Assembly: GCA_964477745.1 (NCBI GenBank)
Contig: CAYZEI010000001.1
Coordinates: 64,393-128,392, forward strand
Direction: 5' to 3'
DNA: 64,000 nt
Origin: an uncultured Candidatus Saccharibacteria bacterium
Lineage (GTDB): Bacteria > Patescibacteriota > Doudnabacteria > UBA920
In this document: one piece after another, positions 7,094 through 64,000 of the stretch
How the letters are laid out: the number at the start of each line of letters is the position of its first letter
Position numbering within the stretch: position 1 is the first letter of the stretch
Program-made: the position numbers and the translations under genes
The notes under the pieces: generated by a model
Told to the model about the DNA's origin: nothing
The model's database searches: none
What the model saw: the letters and a program-made list of their open reading frames with translations, nothing else

Positions 7094-7413
7094 AAGTTTT
7101 ATTTAACTGATTAATTGCCTAAAGCCACTATTAATAGTGACTAATATAAGCAATACTAATGTCTGTTAGACAATTTTATCACAATTATGTTGTAACTTAC
7201 AAGCATTTTAGTGTATAACCTGTTGATGATTGGTGCTAATTAAAAATGCTTATAATTAAAAGCGAAATTGCCCTTAAGAAGGGTTTACAAACCACAAAAA
7301 ATTTGGTAAAATTATAAATCTTGTCGAATGTTCGGACGGCAAGAAATGTCCTGGGTAGCTTTTCTCAATTGAGCCCAGGAATCCTCTATTCCGAACCAGG
7401 AGGAGGGCTGGAG

Positions 7414-7965
7414 ATGATCCATCCCCAGAAGAGTGGTTACCGTGCGGTAGCCATATTCACTCTCGTCTTGGTTGCCGTGGTGCTTTGCGCCCCGGTCGCC
7501 ACAGGCGCGCCAATCAATCTCTATAACACGTTGGACAACACAGCCACCGGGCTGATTTGCACGACGTGTACACCAATCGCTACCAGTGGCCAAGTGGTCT
7601 CTGGATACGCGATCGGGTCTTCGGACCCGAACATCAACAACACAGGAGCGTGGCTGTTCGCGTTGATCTTCCCTGACCTTGGAGGAACTGACGCGGGTCT
7701 TGCAGACCACGTTAAATTGCTAACCGGGGCATCCATGCCAATGCTTGCCCAAGTGTTGATTGATCCCCACACCACCTTCACAGGAACCTCTTCCGGCGGC
7801 ACCTACACCGTTGGAGACGCCTCCTACGTTGTCCACATTGTCAGCGGTGGTAATGGAGGTGGCGGTGGCGGCAACGATCCGGGCGGACAGGTGCCGGAAC
7901 CTGCCAGCGTCGGACTCGTTGGCGCCGGAATCGGCGCAATCTTGTACTCCCGCTTCCGGCGGTAG
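7414..7965 (+). CDS. Secreted protein with PEP-CTERM sorting signal (VPEPASVGLVGAGIGAILYSRFRR)
   Basis: AGGAGGG RBS 7 nt upstream of ATG, signal peptide, Gly-rich linker, canonical PEP + TM + RR C-terminus; locally GC-rich. Confidence 0.6.
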   Translation: MIHPQKSGYRAVAIFTLVLVAVVLCAPVATGAPINLYNTLDNTATGLICTTCTPIATSGQVVSGYAIGSSDPNINNTGAWLFALIFPDLGGTDAGLADHVKLLTGASMPMLAQVLIDPHTTFTGTSSGGTYTVGDASYVVHIVSGGNGGGGGGNDPGGQVPEPASVGLVGAGIGAILYSRFRR

Positions 7966-8038
7966 AATTATTTGGAACGGAAGGAGGAGCCGTTTCAAAC
8001 TTTTAGGAGGATACTAACTTACCCTTAATTGGGCTTTC

Positions 8039-8072
8039 GCCGGAGTACATCCGTATGTACTCCGGCTTTTTT
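8039..8072 (+). terminator. Rho-independent terminator after PEP-CTERM gene
   Basis: GCCGGAGTACATCCGTATGTACTCCGGC hairpin followed by TTTTTT. Confidence 0.65.
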
Positions 8073-8136
8073 ATTTTTCCCTAAAAAACAAAATCCCTCC
8101 CCCGTATAAACGGAGAAGGGATTTTAAAAATTTAAA

Positions 8137-8637
8137 CTAGCGGGTAATACATATTGGCGGATTTCCAACAGAAGATTCAACTGTGTAAGCACAAACTGTA
8201 ACTCTGCCAGTAGTTGCATCTTTAAATACATGATAGCCTGTATCATAAGAAGTCGGACTAACATAAGCAGCCACTGCAGGTGTTGTTGTGCTTGGATCAA
8301 AAGGCAAAGCTGAAATATAGGTCGGTACCAAACATGGAGCAATATCATATCCGGCAGAATTACCCATCCTTGTTGCTGCTGTCGGGATATCAGTTGTACA
8401 ACCAGTCCCTGTAAACACTCCTTTATTGTCAGCCATCCTTTGTCCGACTGCATTTAAAATTGCATTTACATTGCTTGTTCTTTGAGTATTTCTGGATAAA
8501 GCAAATTGTCTCGCCGGGTTAATGGCGATTAATACGATTACCGCCAAAATGGCAATAATACCGATAACCACCAAAATTTCAATAAGGGTAAACCCTTCTT
8601 GCTTTGAAGCTAAAAGCTTCTTCATATTTTTAGTCAT
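8137..8637 (-). CDS. Type IV pilin (prepilin; KQEG/FTLIEILVV class III signal)
   Basis: Prepilin leader ending in Gly followed by FTLIE and hydrophobic helix; own promoter region, likely major pilin; true start may be internal ATG at 8625. Confidence 0.8.
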   Translation of the reverse strand: MTKNMKKLLASKQEGFTLIEILVVIGIIAILAVIVLIAINPARQFALSRNTQRTSNVNAILNAVGQRMADNKGVFTGTGCTTDIPTAATRMGNSAGYDIAPCLVPTYISALPFDPSTTTPAVAAYVSPTSYDTGYHVFKDATTGRVTVCAYTVESSVGNPPICITR

Positions 8638-8859
8638 ACCTTTAAATTTAATTAATTCTAAATTTGAACTTTTATATTTTTGGCCAAACTGCGGTCAAAA
8701 TTAATCTTTAATAATGTACAGAATTTATATCACGTCCTATAAAAAATGTCCAGCCTTTATTTATGCCAAACTTTAAGTTTTTTCTGCAAAATAAAGGGGA
8801 AATTTTGTCTCTTATCGACCGTTTAATTTTTAAGAGACTTAAAATATCGATTTATAAAC

Positions 8860-9829: not shown

Positions 9830-11314
9830 CTACTGCATCTTTAATATCTTCAAACCTTCTTGAGATTTAATGGCCAAATAAACCAAGCCGTTCTGGTAAA
9901 CAATCCCGGCGCCGGCGCCGGACAGCGATGCGGTGGTACAGGCTGCGGGTATGGATGCCGGGGATGACACGTTATACACCTGGAAACCCACAAACGACAG
10001 ACTGCTGGCCACAAAGGCATAGTTCCCGGAAACGGTAATCCCGTTAGCCGCGTAACTTAAAGTCTTGGCACCAAGCTTGGTTAAGATCGGCGCGGCAGAA
10101 TTATCTAATACATAAAAGCCACGCGGGAGCACTGAACCTCCAACCGGCCCCGGGGACGTTCCTAAATAAAACTTTCCTCCGGAAAAATAAAGTGACTGCC
10201 CACCGGCTGCACCAAGATCGCTAAATTGCGTGGCAAACACAGGAGCACCACTTGCGATGTTTAAAACAATTTCCTGAGCGGCACTGCTATTCACTGCCAA
10301 GTAAGCATAATCTCCCCGAACATATATGGCATTTACTCTGGAGCCGACTTCATAAGACCCTCCGCTCACCAACACCGGACTGCCGGGCACGGTGGCATCT
10401 ACCACAAAAAATTCCGGTCCGACTGAATTATTCTCGGTAGCGATATAAACATAGTCATGATTATTGTTAGGGTTTTTGTAGTACACAATAGCGGTAGCTG
10501 GCATAGCATTTCCGGGCAAAGCAAAAGTCGAGCCGGAAATAATTGAAGCCGATCCCGGAACGGTGACATCTGCTATTTGAAATTGTCCGGTGCTTTTGGC
10601 CGTAGCTAAATAGGAATAAATATGTGGACCAACTGTTGCCGTATCAACCGCATTTACGCTACCACTGCCCGTGGACAAAGATTTTAAAACACTTGGAGAC
10701 TGAAAATTATTTGCGTCAACTACATAAAAATCGTCTCCCGAAGAGGCACTCGGTCTAACGGCTAAATATACCGTATTACCGATTACATCCAAACCGTTTG
10801 CAAAACTCCCGCTGGGCAAATTTAACGGACTTCCTGTTGTTTGAATGCTGGGACAAGTCGCCGGTGGCGCAGAGTTAGGACCGCACCCGCCTTGAGCCAC
10901 ACACTGATTCAAATTAACCAGGGTGCTGGATAGCACAACATTTTGGTTGCGCCCGTCAATTACCCACGAGACCGTTTCCGTAACATTTTTTACATCGCTA
11001 GAAACGTCTATCACACTCAATGAGCAACTATAATCCATTGCCGTCCCACAAGCATATGCCGAAATATTTTTAATCCCGTCAAAATTGGTCTGAGCCAAGG
11101 AACGAAAACTTTCCACGGCTTCTTGGGCAATTTGTAAGGCCTCATTGTTGCGCTGTGAGTCCACAGAAATGGATTGGTTGCCAAAAGCCAGGGTCGCTAC
11201 TCCGCCTAAACTAATGGAAAAAATTGAAAAGGCAATCAGCATTTCCAAAGTTCCATATCCCGCCAGTTTTGAGTTTTTTTGATTATTCATTTGCTTTACA
11301 TTAAAATTATTCAA
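9830..11314 (-). CDS. Large pilin-leader protein with LVIVD-type beta-propeller repeats (putative pilus tip/adhesin)
   Basis: AGYGTLEMLIAF prepilin-like N-terminus; repeated YAYLAV / YVYIAT / GPEFFVVDATVPGSP motifs typical of LVIVD repeats. Confidence 0.55.
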   Translation of the reverse strand: MNNFNVKQMNNQKNSKLAGYGTLEMLIAFSIFSISLGGVATLAFGNQSISVDSQRNNEALQIAQEAVESFRSLAQTNFDGIKNISAYACGTAMDYSCSLSVIDVSSDVKNVTETVSWVIDGRNQNVVLSSTLVNLNQCVAQGGCGPNSAPPATCPSIQTTGSPLNLPSGSFANGLDVIGNTVYLAVRPSASSGDDFYVVDANNFQSPSVLKSLSTGSGSVNAVDTATVGPHIYSYLATAKSTGQFQIADVTVPGSASIISGSTFALPGNAMPATAIVYYKNPNNNHDYVYIATENNSVGPEFFVVDATVPGSPVLVSGGSYEVGSRVNAIYVRGDYAYLAVNSSAAQEIVLNIASGAPVFATQFSDLGAAGGQSLYFSGGKFYLGTSPGPVGGSVLPRGFYVLDNSAAPILTKLGAKTLSYAANGITVSGNYAFVASSLSFVGFQVYNVSSPASIPAACTTASLSGAGAGIVYQNGLVYLAIKSQEGLKILKMQ

Positions 11315-15933: not shown

Positions 15934-18783
15934 TTAGAGGGCATTTTTTAAATATTGCCCCGTGTAACTGGCTTTGACTTTGGCAATATCTTCCGGGGTG
16001 CCGGCTGCCACTAACTGCCCGCCCTTGTCCCCGCCTTCGGGACCGAGGTCTATAATCCAGTCCGAGGTTTTAATCATGTCCAAGTTATGTTCAATCACCA
16101 CCACAGTATTTCCTTTGTCCACAAGCTTGTTTAGGACTTGCACTAATCTCTTAACATCGGCAAAGTGCAAGCCCGTGGTCGGCTCGTCTAACAAATACAG
16201 GGTGCGACCGGTGGAAGCGCGGGACAATTCCGTGGCTAACTTTATACGTTGAGCTTCCCCACCGGAAAGGGTGGTGGCATTTTGTCCGAGTCGCATATAA
16301 CCCAAACCGACATGACTTAAGGTTTCCAGCTTTTTATAAATTTGCGGTAAGTTGGCAAAATAAATTTTCGCGTCATCAACAGTCATCTCCAGCACATCGG
16401 AAATGGTTTTGTCTTTATAATGAATTTCCAAGGCCTGCGCGTTATAACGTTTGCCGTTGCATTCTTCACAAGTAATATAGACGTCCGGTAAAAAATTCAT
16501 TTCCACTTTAATCACGCCATCGCCCGCGCATTTTTCACATCGTCCGCCTTTAACGTTAAAACTAAATCGCCCGGCGCGATACCCGCGCATTTTTGCTTCT
16601 TTGGTTTCCGCAAATAAATCGCGAATCGGCGTAAATAGTCCAGTATAAGTAGCCGGATTACTTCGTGGAGTGCGCCCAATCGGGCTTTGATCAATATTGA
16701 TAATTTTATCGATATGCTCAATACCAAGAATTTTCTTGTGCTTGCCCGGCTCGTCTTTACTGTTATAAAAATATTTATACAGCGCCCTGGCTAAAATATC
16801 ATGGAAGAGCGTAGACTTACCGCTACCGGACACACCGGTAACGCAAACAAATTTTCCCAAAGGAATGTCTACATTAATGTCTTTTAAATTAAATTCACTG
16901 GCGCCCAAAATAGAAATTTTTCGGCCATTACCGGGTCTGCGTTTTTTCGGTACTTCAATAAATTCCTTACCGGCCAAATACTGACCGGTTAAACTCTTGA
17001 GGTTTTTTTGCACCTGAGCCGGAGTCCCTTCGGCTACCAATTCTCCGCCGTGCTTCCCGGCACCGGGACCGATATCTACGACCCAGTCCGCCTCGCGAAT
17101 GGTTTCCTCGTCGTGTTCCACTACAATTACCGTGTTACCTAAATCGCGTAATTCCTTAAGGGTTTGCAACAACCGGGAGTTGTCCCGCTGGTGCAATCCA
17201 ATGGACGGTTCATCTAATATATAGAGGACGCCGGTAAGGCCGCTGCCAATTTGCGTAGCAAGACGAATACGTTGAGCCTCTCCACCAGACAGCGTGTCGG
17301 CTGCGCGATCCAGTGACAAATATGACAAACCGACATTTAACAAAAATGACAGGCGGGCATTAATTTCTTTTAACACCTGCCTAGCAATGGTTAAATCTTT
17401 TTGGTTTAAAGATTTGGAAAGATTTTTATAAAATTCACTGGCATCTTCAATATTAGAAGCGGAGACTTCCACAATCCCCTTACCGCCTACCGTTACACCC
17501 AAAACCTCAGGTTTTAACCTGCGCCCCAAACAAGTCGGGCATTGGCGCACGCGCATATAATTTTCAATTTCACTGCGCATATATTCGGAATCGGTTTCTC
17601 TGTAACGACGATCTAAATTTGGAATGACTCCTTCAAATACCGTCATCATTTCAAATTCACCTTCTCGGCTGGCAAATTCTCCGGAGACCTTTACTTTTTT
17701 ATCACCGGTACCATATAAAATTACATCCAAGAATTTTTTCGGTAAATCTTTTATGGGAGTATTTATAGAGAAGCCATACTCTTTGGCCACAGCTTCTAAA
17801 ATTCGGCCGTACCAAGACAGGCGGGATGTTGTTTTGCTCCAAGGACGGACTGCGCCTTCGGCCAAAGTTAACCGCGGGTTTGGAATAACCAAATCGGGTT
17901 CAACTGTTAATTTATGTCCCAACCCCTTACATTCACTGCAAGCACCGTGCGGACTGTTAAAAGAAAAATCCCGCGGGTCCAATTGAGACAATTGCATATG
18001 GCCATCCGGACAGGCAAACTTTTGGGACATTAGCATGTCCGCACCTAACTTGTCGCCTTCCATTTTTGTGGCCATAGCTAAACCGTCACCCAAGTCCAAG
18101 GCTTTTTCCAAACTTTCGGAAATTCGGCCCTTGTCGCTTCGGTCTACCACCAGGCGGTCCACCACTACATCAATACTGTGTTTCTTTTGTTTATCCAAAT
18201 TTAAATTTTGGGCTTCGTTTAAGTCCATCACTGTGCCGTCTACGCGCACACGAGCAAACCCGGCTTTTTTGATTTGTTCAAAAATTACCCGATGTTCTCC
18301 TTTTTGATCTTTAATAAAGGGCGCCAATAAAATTATTTTTGTGCCCGGCTTTATTCCCAAAATCTGCTCTACCATAGCGGCAATGGTTTGCCCTTGTATT
18401 TTTTTCCCGCAAACAGGACAATGCGGAATACCAATACGCGCCCACAAAAGCCTCATGTAGTCATAAATTTCCGTAACGGTTCCGACCGTGCTTCTGGGGT
18501 TATGGGATGCAGATTTTTGGTCAATGGATATTGCCGGAGACAAACCTTCAATTTTATCCACGTCCGGCTTATCCATTAAGCCAATGAATTGGCGCGCGTA
18601 AGCAGACAAGCTTTCCACGTAACGCCTTTGTCCTTCGGCGTAAATTGTATCAAACGCCAAAGAACTCTTACCACTGCCGGACAAACCGGTAAAAACTACC
18701 AGCTTATTGCGGGGTAAATCCACATCTAGATTCTTTAAATTGTGTTGCCGGGCTCCCCGGATGGAAATAATGTCTTTTAACAT
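15934..18783 (-). CDS. uvrA: Excinuclease ABC subunit A
   Basis: Two ABC ATPase modules, zinc-finger Cys clusters, N-term [18 protein letters not shown]. Confidence 0.95.
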
Positions 18784-19002
18784 ATGCTACGGAATTATAA
18801 ATAAATACCTACAGAAAACTACAGAATCTAATAGTCAAACCATTTTTATAGTTTTTTGTAGTGGTTCATTTAGACAAATCAAGCAACAAGCTAGTCATCA
18901 TTCTACCACTTATGTCAAGACCGGGCAAGGGGCTAAGACTTAAATTAAAGCGCCCCGCGACATATGCCGCGGGGCAAGAACAAAGAATCCCAGTTGCCTG
19001 AT

Positions 19003-19248
19003 TCAAGAACTACCCCTTGGCCAAGGCAGAGAGGGTTTTTCTACGTCTCGAAGTTTGTTTGCCTGGGGGACTACAACCGTCCAGGCGACCCAGCAAGCGC
19101 AAGCCTGTTGGATATCCTTGGGCTGAGCCAAGAACCACGAAATAATGGCTCCGCAACCCACAAAAGCCAACACAATGACGCCGATGGCAAACACTCTCCA
19201 GACAGCGTGAACTTTGCCATCGAGGACAACAAAAAACTCGAGCTCCAT
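19003..19248 (-). CDS. Small membrane protein (81 aa) in GC-rich mini-island
   Basis: AGGGGGG RBS 4 nt from ATG (MELEFF...), one TM helix, hairpin terminator downstream (18950..18975). Confidence 0.35.
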   Translation of the reverse strand: MELEFFVVLDGKVHAVWRVFAIGVIVLAFVGCGAIISWFLAQPKDIQQACACWVAWTVVVPQANKLRDVEKPSLPWPRGSS

Positions 19249-19463
19249 ACACCCCCCTATCTTATTTCCTCCCCGGCATGAAATTCCGGAGGTTGAGTGC
19301 ACCAAGCATTACCGCGACGACATTCCCGTTCGCACAGAAACAACATGCCAAGCAATGCCACAATGGACCCAAGGGTCCATAAAACAAGATTTCTCTTGAT
19401 CATAACCAGTAAATTATCACTTTATAGACACAAGGTCAACGGATAGATATAATTTAACTACTT

Positions 19464-26755: not shown

Positions 26756-26780
26756 GCCCATATCCTAATAACCCTGCTTC

Positions 26781-26809
26781 TTGGGTATTAAGCAGGGCTA
26801 TGCTATAAT
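26781..26809 (+). promoter_or_regulatory. Promoter with extended -10 (TTGGGT-N17-TGcTATAAT) for small ORF 26833..27015
   Basis: Consensus spacing, followed by AAGGAGG RBS. Confidence 0.5.
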
Positions 26810-26832
26810 TTTTAACGAAGGAGGAATCCACG

Positions 26833-27015
26833 ATGTTTCAGTGGGTTCTGGGTTCGGGATTACTAACGCGCTCAACTATTATTCCGGCGAATGGAACCAC
26901 AGATTCCACCACCGCCAAACCGGCATCAGCCTCACCAGCTCCACAACCAACTCTCACGGCTGAAGAAATCATCACTCTGACAGCCGATGAAATTACCCCC
27001 TCTGAACATTTCTAA
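26833..27015 (+). CDS. Small 60-aa protein/peptide of unknown function
   Basis: Strong promoter and AAGGAGG-N7-ATG, hairpin terminator downstream at ~27040..27075. Confidence 0.35.
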   Translation: MFQWVLGSGLLTRSTIIPANGTTDSTTAKPASASPAPQPTLTAEEIITLTADEITPSEHF

Positions 27016-27107
27016 AACCCGCCCCAAAGCGGCCCTCATTTAGGCCACGAACCCCCAAGTCCGTGGCCACCTTTTTATTTATTGAAACTATTTGCTATAA
27101 TAACTGC

Positions 27108-28172: not shown

Positions 28173-28195
28173 GTGTGACTAAAAGGAGGCAATCA

Positions 28196-28507
28196 GTGCT
28201 TGCGACTAGTGTGGTTCTTATTGAATGCGAGGAGGAGGCATATGCCAGATTCCTTCATGACCAATGGCCAAGCCTACAATCCTGGTGTGGACTCTTTCCC
28301 ACCCATGGACCAGTAGAGGTCCATCGTAAGAATGTGGTCATCGCGTTGACTTGGGGTGGCCAATTCAAGCCAGAAGAAACCCCTACCTACGTCAGGGGGG
28401 TCAAAGTTTTCGCCCACTCGGGCGACTTCCATATTGCCAGGCAGGAACTCTTGGCACATAACAACACTCAGGTTCATCCTGAGACCCTCTTCGGGGGAAA
28501 AAGTTGA
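28196..28507 (+). CDS. Hypothetical 103-aa protein in GC-rich mini-island
   Basis: AAGGAGG RBS 6 nt upstream of GTG start; hairpin terminator 28538..28575. Confidence 0.35.
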   Translation: MLATSVVLIECEEEAYARFLHDQWPSLQSWCGLFPTHGPVEVHRKNVVIALTWGGQFKPEETPTYVRGVKVFAHSGDFHIARQELLAHNNTQVHPETLFGGKS

Positions 28508-28586
28508 CCACGAACAACGCAACAGTACCGACTCACAAAGAGGCCGCCGCGATTTTCATATCACGACGGCCTCAAACTTCTAACAA

Positions 28587-30409: not shown

Positions 30410-30411
30410 AA

Positions 30412-30801: not shown

Positions 30802-30954
30802 AAATTTATTCTACTTCCTCAACCCCTTTAAGTCAATTTTCGAGTTTGTCTAATTTTATATGTAATTACGTATAAAATTGGGCAAAAGAAAAAGCGACAG
30901 GGACGTATGGAGAATACGTCAAACCTGTCGCCTATGGCGGATGAACATGAACGG

Positions 30955-31158
30955 TCAGTAGGTGCGCGCGAAGAGGAACGAGCGCATTTCACGATCGGCC
31001 TGACGATCATGCAACTCTCTCTCTTTTTTGGAAACAAGCGCCTCGGCTGCGCGCCCACGGGGAGCACCTTTCATTTTACGCCTTCGGGCGGCTTTTGGCC
31101 CACCTTTTACCATTCCGCCTGCCGCGGTTCTAATTCGTGGCTGACCATGACCACTCAT
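30955..31158 (-). CDS. Small highly basic protein (67 aa, R/K/G/P-rich) in GC-rich island
   Basis: AAGGAGTG RBS 6 nt from ATG; hairpin terminator 30889..30935. Confidence 0.3.
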   Translation of the reverse strand: MSGHGQPRIRTAAGGMVKGGPKAARRRKMKGAPRGRAAEALVSKKERELHDRQADREMRSFLFARTY

Positions 31159-31319
31159 ACAATTCACTCCTTTGAACTGGATTTCGGTGACCTTGAAAAT
31201 AAATTTAGGCAACCGAATTTAATATAAATATTAATCCCGTTGTCGGAATTTGTCAAAAGAAAGAGGCGCGGGGAGTCATTGGGAATTGACTCGCGACCGC
31301 GCCCTTGATGATTTCTGAA

Positions 31320-31775
31320 CTACCGATTCAAGCCGGCAAGCTCTGGCAGTGTGCCGTAGTAGCCGACATACCGTTTTTGGCCGGCGACATTTGCTTCAAA
31401 CAATAGAGCCAGCACCCCTACCTTTCCGGAGGGTCTATCGGTCTCCAACTTCCGACAGTCCCAGACCCGAAACTCCGAGTCGCTTGATTCAACGCTGAGA
31501 CGACGCCCCAAACGGCGCCATTCGGCTGCCAGTTTGTCGTACGACATTTTGTGCTTGCGCGATTGCCCTGCCCAGCAGGACTTTTCCTGGGCGTAAAAAC
31601 CATACACCCCGGCTTCGGTTAGAAGTTCGAGGATATAAACCAGAAGCACCTGGTCTCGACACAACCGGACGTGGCACAAATCTACACGTCCTCCTGACGG
31701 ATCTTTCAGAAATAGAGCCACTGGCTCACCTCCTACAAGTCTGTATTTTTCATAAGGCGAAATTAATCGCCCCAA
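31320..31775 (-). CDS. Hypothetical 151-aa protein in GC-rich island (TTG start)
   Basis: Open frame with GC-rich codon usage distinct from host; terminator hairpin 31262..31297. Confidence 0.3.
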   Translation of the reverse strand: MGRLISPYEKYRLVGGEPVALFLKDPSGGRVDLCHVRLCRDQVLLVYILELLTEAGVYGFYAQEKSCWAGQSRKHKMSYDKLAAEWRRLGRRLSVESSDSEFRVWDCRKLETDRPSGKVGVLALLFEANVAGQKRYVGYYGTLPELAGLNR

Positions 31776-31882
31776 GATTTGAGCAGTATAACAAATAAGT
31801 TTAATAAAAGAAAGAGGCGGCCCAGGGTTACCAGGCCGCCTTGCACATCGCGTTGTGGGCGGGTGCTTGCGGGGGAACTATT

Positions 31883-32341
31883 TCAGGCATGAGCAGACGA
31901 TGCGGAAGGGACGAGCCCGGCCCGTTGCATTACCAACGGACCATGTATCCACGCCAGGAGTTGGAGGTGAGAAAATGTGACCTCCGCCTTTCGGATGGCT
32001 TCGCCATCAAAGGCGTGTTCGATCAGAATTTGGACACACCCCTCTTCTGGCTGAGGCTCGCACTGAACCATGGTGAACCCGTCACCTTTCTTCGTTCCTT
32101 GGTTTCGCTGTTCCCGGAGCGCCTTACCGCACAGACGAAACCGCTTCGCGAAGACCCCAAAGGCCAATTGGGGATTTCTCAGCTCAGGACAAGAATCCAT
32201 GTGAGCACGGAGATACTCCGCGACATCACAGGATTTTACTTCCCCTACCAACGGCTTGATGACAATATCTCGAGGAGCTACATCTCCTGAGGCCAAACTG
32301 GCACCTGAAGAGAACGTCAAACGATCAGTGTGTTTGCTCAT
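31883..32341 (-). CDS. Hypothetical 153-aa protein in GC-rich island
   Basis: AGAGGA RBS, ATG at 32341; terminator hairpin 31812..31842. Confidence 0.35.
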   Translation of the reverse strand: MSKHTDRLTFSSGASLASGDVAPRDIVIKPLVGEVKSCDVAEYLRAHMDSCPELRNPQLAFGVFAKRFRLCGKALREQRNQGTKKGDGFTMVQCEPQPEEGCVQILIEHAFDGEAIRKAEVTFSHLQLLAWIHGPLVMQRAGLVPSASSAHA

Positions 32342-32573
32342 CAATCCTCTTTTGTCTATAATATTTCCGGCCGTCCTGAGAAAATTTGAACGCCGAATTT
32401 AATTTAAATATTACTCCTACATAAACCATCTTGTCAAAGCCTCTCCTTGGCTAACGTTAGAGATACTGATATACTGATGCATGCTGATGGCGCTGAGAAA
32501 TTCCGATATCATTAAAATTTGATATCAGTATTATCCGTTTCATCTGTATTAATCCGTATATCAGTATCATATT

Positions 32574-33659: not shown

Positions 33660-33766
33660 AAATTCATAGCTCCCCTCTCCAGTACATGGAGAAAGGTTTT
33701 TAACAAAAGAAAAACGCGAGCCGTGAGGTCCGCGTTCTGCATGCCAACCGGGCAAGCTCGGGTTGT

Positions 33767-33985
33767 TTAGGCTCCTTTGACGAAGCCGATGATGATCAAC
33801 CACGCCGCTAGGGCATTGCACCCCCAGAACAGGGGTTTTGAACAGGTTTTCCGAAACCCATCCCACAGTGTCTGATACATTCCGGCGATTGAGCCAGTGT
33901 TGTTCAACGACTGGCTAAGAATTGGGATTCCCCACAAGACTGTGGAGAACAGGATGACACAAAGACCTAAAAAGATGAGAATCAT
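33767..33985 (-). CDS. Small two-TM membrane protein in GC-rich mini-island
   Basis: AAGGAGG RBS before MILIFLG...; hairpin terminator downstream. Confidence 0.35.
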   Translation of the reverse strand: MILIFLGLCVILFSTVLWGIPILSQSLNNTGSIAGMYQTLWDGFRKTCSKPLFWGCNALAAWLIIIGFVKGA

Positions 33986-34165
33986 GGCCCTCCTTGGGCT
34001 TGCCAAATTTATTCTTGGTTGAGCCAAGAATTCTGTATATTATAGCACTTTTTAAGTACTTTGTCAATATCTATGCCCTATCGACAAAAACCCAAGTAAA
34101 TGCTATAATTTCAACAACTTAATAATTCATATTCTCCCGACAGGGAGATAGAAAGGTTACTTTCT

Positions 34166-36467: not shown

Positions 36468-36549
36468 GCAGTCTTTACATAAACCCAAAATACCCTTAAA
36501 CTTATGTGAGCCTGGTAACTAAACTAGGTAATTTACCCAAGGAGGGTGA

Positions 36550-36951
36550 ATGAGATCGCGACTGATTTTTCTACTGCACTGTTGCTGTTTATTCTCCTTG
36601 GTTGCGAGTTCGCTCGCTTCCGAGTTCATTAAACACACCCACCCCAAGTTCTTTGCCGGAACTTTTATTTACGGCCTCGGACTTGCCTCGGTCCTAACTT
36701 TAGCATCGTGGATGGTGTTCGGCGGTTGCCCGCTTACGTGGCTAGAAAACCACTACCGCAGACTGGAAGGCCGGCCAACGTACCACGGATCGTGTATGGT
36801 CCACTACTACCCCACACGGTGGTTAGGCCAGCCCAACTCGCGCTACATCCACTGCGCACTTTTTGCGATCATGGCTTACCCCGTGGCCGTCCGCTACAGC
36901 GAGCAAATCAAAAGCCTCTGCCTTTCGGCAGTCCGCTTTCTCCTCGAGTGA
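36550..36951 (+). CDS. Membrane protein (CPLTWLE motif, DUF2784-like) in GC-rich mini-island
   Basis: AAGGAGGG RBS, TM helices, terminator 36948..36983. Confidence 0.4.
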   Translation: MRSRLIFLLHCCCLFSLVASSLASEFIKHTHPKFFAGTFIYGLGLASVLTLASWMVFGGCPLTWLENHYRRLEGRPTYHGSCMVHYYPTRWLGQPNSRYIHCALFAIMAYPVAVRYSEQIKSLCLSAVRFLLE

Positions 36952-36971
36952 CCCGAGACACTTCGGGTCAC

Positions 36972-37781
36972 TCACTTTTTTTTACAAGATTTTATTTTAA
37001 CTACAAGCGGGCGATGGTCGGAAATATACGGTCCCATTTCCGCAAGTTGGACTACCAAATTTTTACACAACACCCAGTCTAATTTTAATTTAAACAGTTC
37101 CCAAAATTTTGTATAAAACGGCGACCAGGTAGGAAGGTCTAGTTCAAAAACTTCCTTGAACTTATTTTCTTCCGCTACCGAATTAAAAATAATCCGTTCG
37201 TCCTCGGACAAAAATTTATCTTCATAATTCAATTCGGAATTTGGTTCGCGATGCCACCACTGAATAATTTTTCTGGTCCAACCCGTCCTTACTATGGTAA
37301 CGTTAAAATCTCCGCAAAAAATTATTGGCTCGCCGTTATTAGGCGCATGAAAAAATAAATATTTTAACATTTTTAAACGGGACTTTGGCCCAACATCAAT
37401 AATTGGAAAGTGGCAATTATAAATATGCACTTTTTCTCCGTGAATATTTACCCGCGAGTAACTGGCCGATTCCACCACCGCTTTCGCCGGAACCAAATTT
37501 TTAGGAAAATATATTTCTTTGCTTTCTTCAATCGGAAACTTGGAAAGAATGACATTATGGTTTGCTCCATAAACTCTGACCGATGCCGTATTTTTGGCCG
37601 GCACAAAAATTTGATACTGTTTTAAATTTTCTAATTTTTCTGCAGCGTCGGTTAACTCTTGCAAACAAATTATGTCCGCTTGCTGTTTTTGTAAATAGGG
37701 TAAAATTTTTGAAAACTTTGTAACCGGCCCGTGACGAAACTGTTGGCCCTGCACATTCCACGACAATAGAGTAAACATCAT
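36972..37781 (-). CDS. Endonuclease/exonuclease/phosphatase (EEP) family protein
   Basis: LLSWNVQG N-term, SDHRPLV C-terminal motif. Confidence 0.75.
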   Translation of the reverse strand: MMFTLLSWNVQGQQFRHGPVTKFSKILPYLQKQQADIICLQELTDAAEKLENLKQYQIFVPAKNTASVRVYGANHNVILSKFPIEESKEIYFPKNLVPAKAVVESASYSRVNIHGEKVHIYNCHFPIIDVGPKSRLKMLKYLFFHAPNNGEPIIFCGDFNVTIVRTGWTRKIIQWWHREPNSELNYEDKFLSEDERIIFNSVAEENKFKEVFELDLPTWSPFYTKFWELFKLKLDWVLCKNLVVQLAEMGPYISDHRPLVVKIKSCKKK

Positions 37782-40289: not shown

Positions 40290-40860
40290 TATTATACTCT
40301 TTTGCCCCTCAAGCGTCAATGCAATTTTAAAGGCCCCCGGAAACTTCTGACGAAGCGTGGAGGCCTTTGCTTGAACATCTTTTAACCACCGATGGTGGCA
40401 AGCTGTTCAAACCCGGTAACCGTAGCCGGGGCGGAGATTAGGAGATCACCTCCTTTCGGAAATGATTACAACCATCGTGCGTGGTCATGGTAATACTCCT
40501 TTTCCTGTATGGGTTGATACCTGCCGGAGCTAGCCTTAAGCTCAGGCAAAAATAGAATGGCCTAAGAAATGCCCCTGGGGTCAATGACCCCGTGTCGTGC
40601 CGCAAAAGATCTTGCGGGCTTTCCGGTTTTTGCCGTGGGTTTGTGACTTGAGCCTTTTGGCCTTTCAGTCCGAGGAAATCTCGGATTGGCCTGAAGCCGG
40701 TCAATCACCGGACCAGATTCGGGGGGAGTCGGCATTATGCGAAAATGCGGATCGCGCCGGTTGTCTCGCCGGATCACGGACAGGAATGAGCCCATATTTA
40801 ACCTCCTATGGTTTGTGGGCAAAAAAATGCTCCTTTGGCTTTTTAGGGCTTAAGGAGTTC
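40290..40860. other. GC-rich non-coding block; candidate structured RNA (unclassified), contains 16S-3'-end-like segment
   Basis: GC ~55% vs ~40% flanks, many short hairpins, no convincing ORF; GGTAACCGTAG...GATCACCTCCTTTC at 40420..40466. Confidence 0.3.
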
Positions 40861-46859: not shown

Positions 46860-46950
46860 ATTACTTTGCTGTTAAATCTTAAATCCTCAATCTTAAATCT
46901 TAAATTTCCTACCCCCCTCCTGGGGGTCTTAAGTAACTATACTTTTTAAC

Positions 46951-46979
46951 TTGACGACTGTCAACCATTTCTCTATACT
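46951..46979 (+). promoter_or_regulatory. Sigma70-like promoter TTGACG-N17-TATACT
   Basis: Consensus hexamers and spacing upstream of small ORF 47073..47342. Confidence 0.5.
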
Positions 46980-47072
46980 GACCGGTCCACCGGCTAGTTT
47001 TGGGAGCCCCTAGCCAAAAAGGGTGGATAAAAGTTCTTTGAAAAATTAGTGAGGAGGGAAGAAAGGAAACTT

Positions 47073-47342
47073 ATGGAATCCTTGCTGTTCCTGATTTTGG
47101 CAGCCGGCGTCATGGTGCTCTGGAGTTTGCAACACAACTCCAAGCTCCACGAAGTACTGAGTAAACACTCAGTTAAGTCGGAAAAACTGCCCCAGGCCTT
47201 AGGCATGCTGATTATTTGCGCTCAAATTTCTGAGTTGCTGAAAGTCATTGAGCATGTATCTTTGGTCAATGTAGTCGCCGCCCTATTTTTACTGGCAATA
47301 GTGGCTGCAACTAAAACAGGAACAGAAGGAGGCTTGCACTAA
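47073..47342 (+). CDS. Small two-TM membrane protein (89 aa)
   Basis: GAGGAGGG RBS; terminator 47416..47447. Confidence 0.4.
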   Translation: MESLLFLILAAGVMVLWSLQHNSKLHEVLSKHSVKSEKLPQALGMLIICAQISELLKVIEHVSLVNVVAALFLLAIVAATKTGTEGGLH

Positions 47343-47492
47343 TTCCCCGCGCCGATTTCTCGGTAGCGGATGTTTAGTGCAAACTTTTCCAAAAGTTCCT
47401 GATGCAGAATTTGCAAACACCGCCCTTTATTCTAAAGGGCGGTGTTTCAGTTCCTATCTACTAAATGCTATATGCTATCTCCTAGTTACCAG

Positions 47493-52990: not shown

Positions 52991-53066
52991 TCTTGGCAAA
53001 GACACTAAAAGTTGTGGTAAAATATACGGACTAACAATTATCCTTTAAAAAAGGAGTACCAAATTT

Positions 53067-53282: not shown

Positions 53283-53329
53283 AAAGAATTTAAAAAACTC
53301 ATCCAAATTGGATGAGTTTTTTTATACGA

Positions 53330-53412
53330 ATCAGCGCTGGACAATTCGCGCGAATTGTCCAGTCGCCAAAATACGTAATTAAATATGAGGTTAATGGGCC
53401 ATGTCCCCATTT
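53330..53412 (+). repeat. Direct repeat copy 2 with 34-nt near-perfect palindrome (53334..53367)
   Basis: Shares palindrome + AAAATACGTAA...ATGTCCCCATT with copy 1. Confidence 0.8.
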
Positions 53413-55897: not shown

Positions 55898-57028
55898 TTG
55901 ATTCTTATTTTACAATCTACAATGCCTACAAAAAAATATAAAATAATACTTGATACAAATTTTATATGGAATGACCAAAATAACGGATTGGGAGTTATTT
56001 TTAGTGAACATCTTAATCAACTATCTGCATTTATAAAAAAACATGATTTGATGGCTTCTGTACAGATCTGTTTGCCGGAAATGGTCATCAAGGAGAGGGT
56101 TGCCCAGAAAGTCCGTAAGGCTGATGAATTTAGAAGAAATAGCATGCTAGCATTAAAAAGTTTAGAAACAATAAACCTAAAAGTTGGAAATAAAAAATTT
56201 GAAATAATCGACCTTGAAAAAGCATTTAAAAAAAAGGCTGCGGATATAGTAAGTACCAATAATATTGAAGTAATACCAATCCCCAAAATTAAAAATCATG
56301 ACATTATTAATCGTTCGTTAAGAAAGATTCCCCCTTTTTCGAAAAAAAATACTGATTCAGGCTATAAGGATACAATTATTTGGCTATCTATTTTGGAGGA
56401 TGCAAAAAAGTCAAAAGATTTTGAATATATTTTTTGCACAGAAAATACAAATGATTTTATAATCCCAGAATGCGCAGATGAATTTAAAAAAATTACAAAA
56501 ATCAATATTGAATTTGTAAATAATTTAGATGAGCTAAAATTATTTTTAGACAAGGAGCTAATTTTAAATTTAGAGCTTAAAAAACTTAATGAGCGTATAA
56601 CCGATGAGATAAAACAACATTTGGGAAATCTAAACATTGAATTTAATAAATTTGTTAGAAAAGAACCCGACCCTTTCCCACGAAATCCTTATACATCATT
56701 AAGGGCTTTTGATTCTATTTTAGGAGAAGAAAATAAAGGCGCAATTAAAGGTTATAATGTTTTAAATTTTGCACCAACTAACATTGACCAAAAAAATAAA
56801 TATCAATTTAGCATTGAGGGGGACTTAATGGTTGAAGAGGTATTTGATAATTCAAAAAATGAACCCTTTTTGGTTTATAGGCCTAGTTTTGGGGTAGATA
56901 CTAAGCCTATTACAACGCAGTGGCGCACGCACTTTATATGGAATGATCAAAATAAAACTTTTACTTCATTATTTACAAATCGGCCTTACCCGCCGGTGGG
57001 AATGGCACACTCTTGGGGAATGATTTAA
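55898..57028 (+). CDS. PIN-like-domain protein (DUF4935-like), 376 aa, very AT-rich
   Basis: N-terminal KYKIILDTNFIW PIN-like start; ORFan-like composition next to tRNA. Confidence 0.5.
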   Translation: MILILQSTMPTKKYKIILDTNFIWNDQNNGLGVIFSEHLNQLSAFIKKHDLMASVQICLPEMVIKERVAQKVRKADEFRRNSMLALKSLETINLKVGNKKFEIIDLEKAFKKKAADIVSTNNIEVIPIPKIKNHDIINRSLRKIPPFSKKNTDSGYKDTIIWLSILEDAKKSKDFEYIFCTENTNDFIIPECADEFKKITKINIEFVNNLDELKLFLDKELILNLELKKLNERITDEIKQHLGNLNIEFNKFVRKEPDPFPRNPYTSLRAFDSILGEENKGAIKGYNVLNFAPTNIDQKNKYQFSIEGDLMVEEVFDNSKNEPFLVYRPSFGVDTKPITTQWRTHFIWNDQNKTFTSLFTNRPYPPVGMAHSWGMI

Positions 57029-61643: not shown

Positions 61644-61650
61644 TCTATCT

Positions 61651-62157
61651 ATGAAGAAAACTTTTCAACTAGCTTCACTCATTTTAATTGGAGGGTATTT
61701 AATTTCTTGTGGGGTAACTGCAAGCACTTTCCACTTTATTGATTACACCAATTTAATTTTTCACGAAGCCGGCCATTGGATATTTATGCCCTTTGGGGAA
61801 TTTATAACTTTTGCCGGCGGAAGCCTAAACCAAGTATTAATTCCGCTAATTGTGGCCGGATATTTTTTGTGGCACAGACAAATGGTATCGGCGGCTTTAA
61901 GTTTTATGTGGGCGGGGCAAAGTTTAATTAATGTTTCGGTTTATGCCGCCGACGCCTTAAAAATGCAACTCCCGCTCCTTGGGGGCGACAGCTCCATTCA
62001 TGACTGGAACTGGATGTTAATTTATTTAGGACAGCTTAGACATACCGCCGGAATTGCCCAAACCATAAATGTATTGGGTTGGATTTGTTTGCTTGCTGGA
62101 CTACTGGGAGGTTTGTACTTTATACTTACGGAAACCGAAACTATAGATTATGTCTAA
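61651..62157 (+). CDS. Membrane protein, unknown function
   Basis: Hydrophobicity; terminator 62195..62225. Confidence 0.45.
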   Translation: MKKTFQLASLILIGGYLISCGVTASTFHFIDYTNLIFHEAGHWIFMPFGEFITFAGGSLNQVLIPLIVAGYFLWHRQMVSAALSFMWAGQSLINVSVYAADALKMQLPLLGGDSSIHDWNWMLIYLGQLRHTAGIAQTINVLGWICLLAGLLGGLYFILTETETIDYV

Positions 62158-62245
62158 ACTTAATTCCAAAAAAATTATACTCGATAAACCCTCTCTGCCC
62201 CGCAAAAAGCGGGGCATCTCTCCCATAAAGGGAGAGAGTAAAGTG

Positions 62246-63361
62246 ATGATTCTCGCTATTGAAACCAGCTGCGACGAAACTGCCGCAGCGGTTTTAGAAG
62301 TAACCACCGGCGACAAATGGCCGGAAATTACCACCTTGTCGTCCATAGTAAATTCCCAAATTAAATTACACAGTAAAATGGGTGGCGTAGTACCGGAAGT
62401 GGCTGCCCGGGCTCACGTAAAAAACATCCGCCCGGTGGTCACTGCAGCCCTAAAAGCTAGCTCCTATAAGCTAGAAGCTATAGACTACATCGCCGTCACC
62501 GCCGGCCCCGGTCTTATTCCTTCACTAATTGTTGGCGTGGAGTTTGCTAAAGCTTTGTCCTTGGCCACCGGCAAACCGCTAATCCCGGTTAACCATATGC
62601 TTGGACACCTTTATTCTCCCTTTGGGAGAATAAAATCCAAAATCCAAATTTCCAATGACAAAAAAAATCCAAAATCTGAAATCATAAATCATAAATCTTT
62701 TTTTCCTAATATTTCTTTGATAGTTTCCGGAGGTCATACAATTCTGGTATTAATGCCCGCCAGAGGCGGGTCCGCCTCTGGCGGAGAAAATTCCAAGGAA
62801 TATATAGTACTTGGCCAAACCGTAGACGACGCGGCCGGTGAAGCATTTGATAAAGTAGCCAAGCTCTTAGGTCTCCCCTACCCAGGTGGTCCGGAAGTTT
62901 CGCGCCTGGCTTTAAAAGGAAATCCTACCGCCATAAATTTTCCTCGGCCAATGATCCATGCAAAAAATTATGACTTTTCTTTCTCCGGACTCAAAACCGC
63001 AGTTCTATATTATGTAAAAGATAAAGGATTAAAGATTAAAGATGAAGGTTTTACTGCGGATGTCTGCGCCAGCTTCCAAGCCGCGGCCGTGGACGTCTTG
63101 GTACAAAAAACCATGCGTGCAGTAAAACAATTCAATGCCAAATCCGTATCTCTCTCCGGCGGTGTCGCCGCCAATGCAGTCCTGCGTGATGCATTAAATC
63201 TTCAATCTAAAAACCTAAATCTTAAATTTTTTGTCCCTGACAAAAATTTATGCACCGACAATGCGGAAATGATTGGCATTGCTTCTGCCTTTATGCTACA
63301 AAACGGTTTTAAGCCTGTCAGTTATAAAAAAGCCAAAGCCGACTCCAATTTACATTTATAA
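62246..63361 (+). CDS. tsaD: tRNA N6-threonylcarbamoyladenosine synthase TsaD (carries in-frame palindromic element)
   Basis: MILAIETSCDETAAAV, HMLGHLY, GGVAAN motifs; start after GGGAGAG RBS. Confidence 0.85.
   Translation: MILAIETSCDETAAAVLEVTTGDKWPEITTLSSIVNSQIKLHSKMGGVVPEVAARAHVKNIRPVVTAALKASSYKLEAIDYIAVTAGPGLIPSLIVGVEFAKALSLATGKPLIPVNHMLGHLYSPFGRIKSKIQISNDKKNPKSEIINHKSFFPNISLIVSGGHTILVLMPARGGSASGGENSKEYIVLGQTVDDAAGEAFDKVAKLLGLPYPGGPEVSRLALKGNPTAINFPRPMIHAKNYDFSFSGLKTAVLYYVKDKGLKIKDEGFTADVCASFQAAAVDVLVQKTMRAVKQFNAKSVSLSGGVAANAVLRDALNLQSKNLNLKFFVPDKNLCTDNAEMIGIASAFMLQNGFKPVSYKKAKADSNLHL
62755..62794. repeat. In-frame palindromic element type B, copy 2 inside tsaD
   Basis: Near-identical to 20757..20792; encodes ARGGSASGGEN insertion absent from canonical TsaD. 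Confidence 0.7.
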
Positions 63362-63470
63362 AGAATTTTTTGTCTTTTTGGTTTAAAATAAAAAAATAAA
63401 ACTGTTTGTTAATTGATGATTACCCTAAGGGGTAGTCATGAGGGAACAAATCCACTGGAGGTAAGTGACC

Positions 63471-63755
63471 ATGAGGGTTATGCGTTTTTCTTCTGAGACT
63501 TTCGCTCAGCGCTTTACTGAAGCGCATTTAACGGCGCGGGATCGAGTCACCGTCTACCAAGGACAGCAGGTCTGCCTGGTTATTCCGGAAGACTACATCG
63601 TCCCAAGCGGTTCGGTACCCGGACTGCTTGAAGAAGTGCTGATAGAGCACAACGAATCAAAAATCGTGTCCCTGCTGGAACACGAAGACTGGGACAACCT
63701 CTTTCCCCGAATTGAACGCGGATCGGGAGAGGTGGTACTGTCTCATATTTGCTGA
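63471..63755 (+). CDS. Small protein with Phd/YefM-antitoxin-like N-terminal region; GC-rich unit
   Basis: GGAGG RBS; N-terminal pattern resembles YefM; terminator 63768..63815. Confidence 0.35.
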   Translation: MRVMRFSSETFAQRFTEAHLTARDRVTVYQGQQVCLVIPEDYIVPSGSVPGLLEEVLIEHNESKIVSLLEHEDWDNLFPRIERGSGEVVLSHIC

Positions 63756-64000
63756 AAGCGCTAGCCGGCCGGCCAGACATCACTTAAAGGGTGTCTGGCC
63801 ACAAATTTTTTTAGGCTTGAAACTGCTTTCGGAATGCTATATACTATACACAAGCTTACATTTCGGCCGTCACCGGAATATCCGCGCCGACAGCGCGGAA
63901 GCATCGGAAGAACCACTTAGGAAGTAGTAATTGGAAAATAGTGATTAGTGCCTTACACTAACTACTCATTACTAACTACTCATTACTAATTAAAGTAGAC

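Follow-up and report, generated by a model that had tools for sequence, protein, structure and literature searches.

GC-rich, Shine–Dalgarno-led gene cassettes in intergenic slots of a Saccharibacteria genome

Genomic context and composition

The stretch of DNA considered here, the window, comprises 64 kb of the genome of an uncultured Candidatus Saccharibacteria bacterium (contig CAYZEI010000001.1, positions 64,393–128,392) and has a GC content of 41.1%. Between its housekeeping genes lie short GC-rich segments—the islands—that consist of small gene cassettes with their own expression signals. These cassettes differ from the core genes in the GC content at third codon positions (GC3) and in the use of a Shine–Dalgarno (SD) sequence: SD-dependent, GC-rich cassettes within an otherwise SD-less Patescibacteria genome are an unexpected property. 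The neighboring genes and the relatives of YchF place the window in Candidatus Saccharibacteria. The gene order is dnaK-grpE-hrcA, sortase, pilins, pilB/C, uvrA, uvrC, RNase J, aminoacyl-tRNA synthetase (aaRS), pgm, ychF, rpsF-ssb, efp, gdh, trxB, htrA, and tsaD, and it is collinear with that of relatives down to 64% YchF identity. No integrase or transposase is found among the annotated open reading frames (ORFs), and no repeat family common to the islands is found in the window.

A sequence-only reading had described nine segments of roughly 50 to 60% GC. The intervals measured are 7270..8080 (53.6%), 18950..19400 (52.3%), 28175..28580 (51.7%), 30830..32350 (51.2%), 33660..34030 (49.3%), 36540..36985 (53.8%), 40290..40860 (51.0%), 46940..47450 (45.4%), and 63460..63940 (50.1%), with 500-bp flanks of 32 to 43%. 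The elevation is clear in eight of the nine segments and marginal in 46940–47450 (45%); the described range fits the island ORFs (0.46–0.59) and not the intervals (45.4–53.8%). For statistics, 13 island ORFs (among them i1, i2a, i2b, i3, i4a, i4b, i4c, i5, i6, i7, i8, and i9) are compared with 54 core genes. Mean GC3 is 0.551 in the island ORFs versus 0.389 in the core genes (Mann–Whitney p = 1.3 × 10⁻⁷), which bears out the segments as compositional outliers. Core genes shorter than 200 aa have a mean GC3 of 0.377, similar to large core genes. High GC is not exclusive to the segments: five further 300-bp stretches exceed the mean by two standard deviations, all of them within long core genes (5496–5845, 9848–10225, 15989–16296, 16965–17343, and 20926–21229). 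The discriminating signature is hence not GC alone but the combination of GC3, an SD match of at least 5 nt, and an intergenic position.

Anatomy of the cassettes

Promoters and terminators were read by eye on both strands; a separate consensus scan, which covered 26500–41000 only, reported the promoters of i5, i4c, and i4a and the terminators of i4c and i6. Island 1 (7285..8079, plus strand) features a candidate promoter at ~7285–7320, a hairpin leader, the SD AGGAGGAGG at 7398–7407, an ORF of 183 aa (7414–7965; GC 0.59, GC3 0.65), and a terminator hairpin at 8040–8065 followed by a T-run. Island 2 (18953..19439, minus strand) is a two-ORF operon between a promoter TTGACC..GATAAT at 19411–19439 and a terminator hairpin at 18953–18974. 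Its first ORF (19257–19403, 48 aa, one transmembrane [TM] segment) has a −10 box ~10 nt ahead of the ATG and no SD, a leaderless-like arrangement, and is followed by an ORF of 81 aa, likewise with one TM segment (19003–19248). Island 3 (28183..28573, plus strand) occupies the slot between a tyrS/trpS-like gene and pgm, with the SD AAAGGAGG at 28183–28191, an ORF of 103 aa with a GTG start (28196–28507), and a GC-rich hairpin without a T-run at 28540–28573.

Island 4 consists of three head-to-tail cassettes, all on the minus strand. Cassette 4a (30883..31256) carries a promoter module TTGACA-17-TAATAT at 31256–31228, followed by TATTTATATTAAATTCGG, the SD AAGGAG, an ORF of 67 aa with a net charge of +12 (30955–31158), and a terminator at 30883–30929. 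Cassette 4b (31253..31800) has the SD AGGAGGTGA, an ORF of 133 aa with a GTG start (31320–31721), and a terminator at 31253–31303. Cassette 4c (31805..32454), a swap slot, opens with a conserved 5' module at 32454–32345 that contains TTAGCCAAGGAG.., TTGACA-18-TAATAT at 32437–32408, and the leader; the weak SD AGAGGA precedes an ORF of 152 aa (31883–32341), and a conserved terminator with a T-tract lies at 31841–31815. Island 5 (33703..34067, minus strand) has a promoter TTGACA-17-TATAAT that matches in 12 of 12 positions (34067–34039), a leader hairpin, the SD AAGGAGG, an ORF of 72 aa with two TM segments (33767–33985), and a terminator at 33703–33736. Island 6 (36474..36983, plus strand) features a candidate promoter at 36474–36502, the SD AAGGAGGGTGA at 36539–36549, an ORF of 133 aa with multiple TM segments and seven Cys residues (36550–36951), and a terminator at 36946–36973 with a T8 run.

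Island 7 (40330..40810, minus strand) carries the SD AGGAGGT at 40802–40808 and an ORF of 77 aa with a net charge of +10 (40562–40795), whose coding status is less certain than that of the other island ORFs. Downstream of i7, the ~230 nt at 40330–40560 (minus strand) are GC-rich, apparently non-coding, and ~82% identical, with indels, in a close relative (L090). Within this tail, 13 nt (AAAGGAGGTGATC) are perfectly complementary to the 16S 3' end and are followed by no start codon; the tail could be a small RNA, a 3' untranslated region, or an anti-SD sponge. Island 8 (46951..47450, plus strand), the weakest by GC, comprises a promoter TTGACG-17-TATACT at 46951–46979, the SD GAGGAGGG, an ORF of 89 aa with two TM segments (47073–47342), and a bidirectional terminator at 47417–47445. 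Island 9 (63455..63812, plus strand) lies between tsaD and a 23S_rRNA_IVP-family gene, with the SD GGAGGT, an acidic ORF of 94 aa without TM segments (63471–63755), and a terminator at 63771–63800 with a T-run.

Two similar units had escaped the sequence-only reading. The one at 26800..27070 (plus strand) has a −10 box TATAAT at 26804–26809, the SD AAGGAGG at ~26819–26826, an acidic ORF of 60 aa without TM segments (26833–27015), and a hairpin at ~27043–27066. The other, at 52923–53378, has the SD AAGGAG, a DUF1059-like ORF of 71 aa (53067–53282), and its own terminator, and is bracketed by perfect 42-bp direct repeats (52923–52964 and 53337–53378) that contain the palindrome CTGGACAATTCGCGCGAATTGTCCAG; the repeats might serve as att-like or operator sites, or stem from a duplication. 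With island 4 being three tandem cassettes and island 2 holding two ORFs, not every segment is a single-gene unit; the description as self-contained units of promoter, ribosome-binding site (RBS), small ORF, and terminator holds as far as sequence can be read. A strong SD and a hairpin terminator are present in most of them, the exceptions being the weak SD of i4c, the SD-less first ORF of island 2, and the hairpin of island 3 without a T-run.

Translation-initiation signals

An SD match of at least 5 nt precedes 11 of the 13 island ORFs versus 2 of the 54 core genes (Fisher p = 4 × 10⁻⁹), and matches to the anti-SD complement that reach 6 nt are absent from all 54 core genes (examples of core genes are those with starts at 5406, 50309, 44770, 42418, 37781, and 59712). 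When GGAGG ahead of a start codon and a frame of 30 codons or longer is sought irrespective of annotated starts, the matches are essentially the island genes alone; a broader SD motif adds dnaK (AAGGAG; true start 2781) and the unit at 53 kb. In 17 of the 54 core genes, a −10-like (TATAAT-like) box ends no more than 12 nt before the start, and this spacing suggests that leaderless core transcripts may be widespread. The core genes of relatives are likewise SD-less, including those of a relative with 58% GC (L008), and the SD-led ORFs in relatives are almost only slot genes. Among Patescibacteria, reports of anti-SD loss concern mainly one subgroup of Parcubacteria (PMC9297842). Saccharibacteria would accordingly be expected to retain the anti-SD. 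In the collection of papers searched, none treats SD usage or leaderless genes in Saccharibacteria. Gene callers and detectors of horizontal gene transfer tuned to a single RBS model would handle the two gene classes differently.

Junctions and slot turnover among relatives

The close relatives are L086 (JGI 3300037810/NCBI MFA5990887.1; ~89% nucleotide identity), L090 (80–93%), and the conspecific L172 (97–100%); L092, L094, L006, L007, L008, L095, and L173 are more distant. A relative search based on PilB yields other genomes at no more than 78% identity, and islands 1 and 2 are compared with L172 and L173 only. The L086 contig, fully syntenic with the window, is labeled "Candidatus Doudnabacteria" at NCBI, and L007 is labeled Methylomirabilota; both labels are likely the result of mis-binning or misclassification of metagenome-assembled genomes.

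The cassettes are genuine genes, and their junctions are real. Together with its two flanks, island 1 recurs at 99.7 to 100% identity in three independent assemblies, which come from different samples and other assemblers (L001–L003); two shorter contigs (L004 and L005) hold little besides the island 1 gene, and island 9 is present in four independent assemblies. Exact island proteins occur on one to four contigs from NCBI, Logan, ENA, or JGI. In addition, the same junctions recur in diverged relatives: that of i3 in L086, that of i6 in L090, and that of i1 in L172.

What a given gap contains differs among relatives: it may be the gene of the window, a hyper-diverged allele of it, an unrelated gene, several genes, or no gene at all, as judged by slots 3 (aaRS/pgm), 4 (upstream of ychF), 5 (ychF/rpsF), and 8 in the window, L086, L090, L092, L094, L007, and L008. 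Slot 4 illustrates replacement. It holds three cassettes in the window versus one each in L086 and L090, from both of which 4a and 4b are absent. The promoter/leader of 4c (32454–32345) and its terminator (31877–31800) are conserved in L086 and L090 and enclose mutually dissimilar payloads of 152 aa (window), 58 aa (L086), and 104 aa (L090), and in L092 the same promoter module precedes a 59-aa homologue of the L086 payload and a different terminator. The conserved promoter/leader and the terminator mark the boundaries of replacement. Slot 5 is empty (~90–170 bp) in L092, L094, L007, and L008, and measures 1.7 kb with three other genes in L090. In slot 8, 442 bp (46972–47414) are cleanly absent from L090, where the promoter of the neighboring gene (−35 box) abuts the same terminator; variants of the island 8 protein exist (P0013 and P0014). 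Island 7 keeps its first ~17 residues in L090, with the remainder replaced (43% amino acid identity overall). The 60-aa unit at 26800–27070 has a homologous SD-led ORF of 54 aa with a GC of 0.56 in the same place in L086, and the uvrA/uvrC gap of L173 holds a 42-aa TM ORF with AGGAGGTG and a GC3 of 0.74.

Slot 3 contains an SD-led ORF of 102 to 110 aa in all seven genomes compared, which reach down to 64% YchF identity. L086 has the same gene (an 83% allele), diverged to the same degree as its flanks. In L090, alignment breaks off precisely at the SD and does not resume before the pgm stop; the encoded protein shares 34% identity with that of the window, next to a flank of 92.6% nucleotide identity. 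Homology is detectable among the window, L086, and L090 only, BLAST and hhalign being negative for the rest of the seven, and the slot-3 gene of L008 (58% GC) has a GC3 of 0.83, as its own genome. Island 6 is kept in L090 at 86.5% nucleotide identity with a GC3 of 0.71. Substitutions by codon position number 9/5/34 for i3 (window versus L086) and 13/6/31 for i6 (window versus L090); synonymous divergence equals that of the flanking core genes, and the non-synonymous share is ~40% versus 0 to 22% in the core genes compared (3- to 6-fold). Judged by this pattern, i3 and i6 are translated genes, resident since the lineage splits and with fast protein evolution.

The center of island 1 (7500–7800) is 58 to 66% identical to that of the conspecific L172, in surroundings of 97 to 100%. 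The changes are of all base types, include synonymous sites and one 9-nt indel, and spread over ~300 nt. Given changes of all types and at synonymous sites, the center is probably an imported diverged allele; a target of a diversity-generating retroelement was rejected, the changes not being confined to adenines and no template-repeat copy having been found in the window. The pilin gene at 8137–8637 (minus strand) also varies: its C-terminal globular domain (8100–8500) is 47 to 66% identical to that of L172, between flanks of 97 to 100%. The pattern is the classic one of a surface antigen that undergoes allelic replacement, and the domain stays AT-rich (40% GC), unlike i1.

Gene products

The products are small membrane, secreted, or basic proteins of nearly no family, much as the sequence-only reading had it; the exceptions are a PEP-CTERM tail in i1 and a borderline DUF2784 match in i6. 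TM-like segments (one to two or more) are present in i2a, i2b, i5, i6, and i8, i4a and i7 are strongly basic, and i3, i4b, i4c, i9, and the 60-aa protein at 26833–27015 are soluble orphans. Among the small TM peptides i2b, i5, and i8, only i2b (48 aa) falls within the size of type I toxins (<60 aa). The island proteins match no family beyond PEP-CTERM in PHROGs, PADLOC, and NCBIfam; i4b has no match in Pfam, NCBIfam, PHROG, or PADLOC, and i9 has no family match. An Rfam search of the window, both at the gathering threshold and at E ≤ 1, returns two tRNAs only, neither of them in an island.

The i1 protein consists of a signal-peptide-like segment, a variable central domain, a Gly-run, and a PEP-CTERM-like tail (VPEP...RFRR) that scores 21.8 bits against PF07589 (cutoff 20.7) and 21.7 bits against TIGR02595 (cutoff 16); it hence combines a C-terminal PEP motif, a TM segment, and a basic cluster. 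A sortase (PF04203) lies two genes from island 1, and no exosortase is seen among the annotated ORFs of the 64-kb window. The N-terminal domain is rare, with five hits in a library of 1.84 × 10⁹ representatives, the best being the conspecific allele P0018 of L172; the library carries no names or context, which leaves the other four hits without an assigned origin. In L173, a 229-aa SD-led protein with a GC of 0.61 (16396–17085) is encoded beside pilin and sortase genes, with an N-terminal domain unrelated to i1 and the same Gly-run and VPEP...RWRR tail. The surface proteins of this Saccharibacteria lineage may thus be characterized by PEP-CTERM-like anchoring. The i6 protein scores 29.6 bits against DUF2784 (cutoff 29.7; E = 7.5 × 10⁻⁷; profile positions 38–89 of 109), and its L090 orthologue is flagged as weak. 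We infer that the products are rapidly diversifying envelope or accessory factors; proximity to pili and sortase, envelope targeting, and the diversifying patterns suggest roles at the cell surface.

A shared promoter module and a phage-like copy

The promoter module TTTGACAA-N17-TAATATTTAWATTAAATTCGG is present in two copies in the window, before i4c and i4a, although chance alone would predict no copy. In L086, L090, L092, and L177, other payloads follow the module. One promoter/leader module is associated with at least four payload types across five genomes, in addition to the second copy of the window. Among 5.8 × 10⁹ protein clusters, the sole homologue of i4c is P0017, encoded by the locus L177 on a Patescibacteria contig (GCA_038057665.1, JBBUCT010000383.1). 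This locus is 80% identical to the window at the nucleotide level over a region that starts 17 nt upstream of the −35 box and includes the ORF. Its cassette follows three PHROG-matching genes, namely one of a family with unassigned function, a primase, and a DNA helicase (E = 3 × 10⁻⁵⁸), and has a GC3 of 0.50 versus 0.38 to 0.42 for the adjoining genes. The same promoter-bearing cassette thus occurs in a chromosomal slot and in the context of a phage-like replication module. The L177 helicase has only relatives of 23 to 29% identity in IMG/VR. An 18-mer of the promoter module gives nine hits in IMG/VR, all of them chance matches without extended similarity. No homologue of the cassette proteins was identified outside Patescibacteria in the 5.8 × 10⁹ clusters and the 1.84 × 10⁹ representatives.

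Other features of the window

A second class of accessory genes is AT-rich and without SD (36972–37781, 41603–42418, and 55898–57028): L090 lacks two of them, an Exo_endo_phos nuclease (GC 0.37) and a gene of 271 aa (GC 0.34), and a PIN_12 protein has a GC of 0.30. Adjoining island 7, a truncated thioredoxin-reductase-like ORF of 176 aa (40977–41507, minus strand) comprises the N-terminal Pyr_redox_2 part only; it is short in L090 as well (163 aa), a full-length paralogue lies at 45644–46576, and possible readings of the ORF are a conserved pseudogene and the remnant of a domain. A 42-nt GC-rich palindrome (CCCGCCYGCAGTCGCCTGARGCTCCAGCTGATGGCGGGCAGG) occurs with 95% identity in two unrelated coding genes, namely uvrC (20926–20967) and a 308-aa gene at 48616–49542 (49366–49407). 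Another GC palindrome, at 20754–20790, matches L094 twice, with 100% identity over 32 nt and ~90% over 39 nt. Such in-gene palindromes are reminiscent of the palindromic elements (RPEs) of Rickettsia.

Origin of the cassettes

The reading preferred here, to which somewhat better than even chances are given, is that the islands are moron-like autonomous cassettes that behave like minimal mobile elements, are exchanged by recombination in a naturally competent lineage, and form a flexible gene complement. DNA would be taken up from outside the cell, and homologous recombination would move the cassettes as whole units; this route is proposed because Saccharibacteria are naturally competent. Natural competence and insertion into intergenic sites by homologous recombination have been shown experimentally in other Saccharibacteria (PMC10633639). 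The homology arms would be the conserved flanks or else the promoter and terminator modules that cassettes have in common; phage-like elements may be one vehicle. Because the cassettes bring their own promoter, RBS, and terminator, they would be expressed wherever they are inserted and leave their neighbors undisturbed. Their products plausibly act in interactions with host cells or phages, and the GC-rich, SD-dependent signature would mark a gene pool distinct from the AT-rich, largely SD-less core. The claim of the sequence-only reading that regular islands are unexplained by the annotation is overstated: they are strain-variable accessory genes in recombination slots between collinear core genes. 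It had also overlooked that the SD itself is anomalous in this window and that one payload takes the place of another while the promoter/leader before it and the terminator behind it are conserved.

Several observations weigh against exchange by recombination. Recombination is read from sharp identity breaks at conserved sequence alone, with no transfer directly observed. The co-divergence of i3 and i6 with their flanks makes some cassettes long-term residents, slot 3 looks more like one fast-evolving orthologue than like repeated replacement, and the L008 slot-3 gene, tracking its own genome, indicates that there is no single donor composition. The phage-like context comes from the single 3.3-kb contig of L177. 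Searches of phage and plasmid collections with the island proteins by tblastn give no match, and scans of IMG/VR with i4b, i9, and i6 give no relatives. Structure models are uninformative: that of i1 by AlphaFold2 (five-sequence alignment) has a predicted local distance difference test (pLDDT) score of 34 and is unusable; that of i3 (pLDDT 67) is predicted as β-α-β-β-β-α and has generic ferredoxin-like hits only in a Foldseek search of the PDB (E > 0.03).

Some of these points would be expected if the genes were a native class, inherited vertically and evolving very fast, with their GC kept by selection on protein or mRNA properties and the SD needed since GC-rich, leadered, structured mRNAs cannot use SD-independent or leaderless initiation. 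The presence of an SD-led ORF of similar length in slot 3 of all seven genomes, the flank-like synonymous divergence of i3 and i6, the GC-richness of both i1 alleles, which are ~35% apart (both ~54–55% GC, GC3 0.60–0.64), and the composition of the L008 gene agree with such a class, as do the analogous GC-rich SD-led genes of L173 in the uvrA/uvrC gap and the pilin neighborhood, including a different PEP-CTERM-like protein. Vertical descent is nevertheless unlikely, given that payloads of the same slot 4c are non-homologous and differ in length, that presence and absence are cleanly separated, that L090 has an i3 of 34% amino acid identity despite a closer flank (92.6%) than L086 (89%), which has the 83% allele, and that the i4c-type cassette also occurs in the phage-like context of L177. 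More improbable still is a recent import from a non-Patescibacteria donor with higher GC and SD usage, such as an actinobacterial host or Gram-negative neighbors. A PEP-CTERM tail is typical of exosortase-bearing Gram-negatives, so the tail of i1 speaks for such a donor, together with the atypical GC3 and SD and with DUF2784 being a broad bacterial family. Yet the one homologue of i4c is from Patescibacteria, the best hit of the i1 domain is the conspecific allele, the promoters are of host type and common to several cassettes, no plasmid or phage match exists in the collections searched, and i3 and i6 are older than the split from the sister genomes. Import from a foreign donor is not supported because GC-rich SD-led ORFs occupy the same slots across deep relatives; the simple horizontal acquisition that the sequence-only reading had offered for checking is at odds with this distribution, with the co-divergence of i3 and i6 with their flanks, and with homologues being found only in Patescibacteria.

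GC-rich DNA yields ORFs on both strands, and the tail of island 7 (40330–40560) is conserved with indels and no convincing ORF, as expected if the segments were structured non-coding RNAs or regulatory elements with incidental ORFs. That is very improbable for the islands as a class in view of the missing Rfam matches even at E ≤ 1, the codon-position pattern of substitutions in i3 and i6, the SD and start codons, the PEP-CTERM and TM features, and the homologues at the protein level. Assembly chimerism with reads of a GC-richer organism, the other possibility raised by the sequence-only reading, would produce abrupt shifts of composition at intergenic positions such as those seen here; it is practically excluded because independent assemblies from different samples and assemblers reproduce identical junctions, which recur in the diverged L086 (i3), L090 (i6), and L172 (i1). 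As for the composition itself, GC-biased gene conversion at hot spots is disfavored by the hypervariable pilin domain, which has 40% GC in both strains, whereas both i1 alleles keep ~54–55%, and GC-rich Saccharibacteria are not supported as donors of SD-led genes, the core genes of L008 being SD-less despite 58% GC. The remaining options are a circulating cassette pool or selection for GC-rich mRNAs with the SD offsetting structured leaders.

Exchange of cassettes by recombination may extend further, to a plug-and-play layer of the genome—a doubtful proposal at present. In Saccharibacteria, and perhaps in other Patescibacteria as well, the shared promoter/leader and terminator modules would act as homology arms, small hypervariable envelope proteins would be swapped into fixed slots among the core genes by natural transformation, with phage-like elements as carriers, and the SD-dependent, leadered, GC-rich layer would be translationally separate from an AT-rich core that is SD-less or leaderless. 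If so, separate control of the cassette genes would be possible, for instance during host attachment. Patescibacteria are a large and poorly understood share of bacteria with tiny, otherwise highly syntenic genomes. If the layer is exchangeable and separately translated, the cassettes flag the genes likeliest to underlie strain-specific interactions with hosts and phages. A strong SD with raised GC3 in an SD-less genome would then be a search signature for any Saccharibacteria genome, and the slots, equipped with native modules for promoter and terminator, would offer natural landing pads in the engineering of the now-transformable Saccharibacteria.

Comparison with known systems

Morons are independent transcription units added between phage genes (PMC3594210). 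The cassettes share with them a single gene in an intergenic gap, with a promoter and a terminator of its own as discerned from the nucleotide sequence and neighbors undisturbed, a composition unlike that of the neighbors, variable presence, and often accessory proteins of surface or membrane; in L177, the i4c-type cassette adjoins a primase and a helicase of phage type. Unlike morons, the cassettes of the window do not lie within a phage or prophage genome, the copy in L177 being the exception: their neighbors are housekeeping genes (dnaK/grpE/hrcA, uvrA/C, RNase J, aaRS, pgm, ychF, rpsF-ssb, efp, and tsaD). They also differ from their surroundings in the translation-initiation signal, and several are stable over species-level divergence.

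The minimal mobile elements of Neisseria (Saunders & Snyder 2002; Snyder et al. 2007, as defined in PMC3082526) are whole-gene cassettes that differ between strains, lie between conserved genes, and are exchanged in a transformable host, which is attributed to homologous recombination in the flanks. Different whole-gene cassettes between conserved flanking genes are found here at slots 3, 4, 5, and 8, and, as in Neisseria, the cassettes bring no mobility genes as far as the annotated ORFs show. A transformable host and incorporation by recombination would be further parallels; the sharp identity breaks at conserved sequence and the competence of other Saccharibacteria are consistent with both. 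In contrast to Neisseria, the homology may be confined to the promoter/leader (~110 nt) and the terminator (~80 nt) instead of the flanking genes, and each cassette is one small orphan gene, with the GC-rich, SD-led signature being uniform among them, in an ultrasmall episymbiont.

Integron cassettes are likewise small, mostly orphan single-gene units that are strain-variable and form tandem arrays, as the three in slot 4. The present cassettes differ by their own promoters, their dispersal over many loci, and their occurrence in both orientations. No attC-like common site is seen—there is no shared repeat family, and the 3' hairpins are unrelated terminator-like stems—with no dedicated attC model having been run, and no integrase domain occurs in the scanned ORFs. 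For island 1 only, PEP-CTERM/exosortase proteins are a further point of comparison: it shares the N-terminal hydrophobic signal-like segment, the VPEP motif, the TM helix, and the Arg cluster, and differs by its rare N-terminal domain and by its place in a Saccharibacteria genome beside a sortase and pilin cluster. Compared with known flexible-genome cassettes, the variant features of this system are the tiny single-orphan payloads, the promoter/leader and terminator as apparent borders of exchange, and the contrast in GC3 and SD with an SD-less core.

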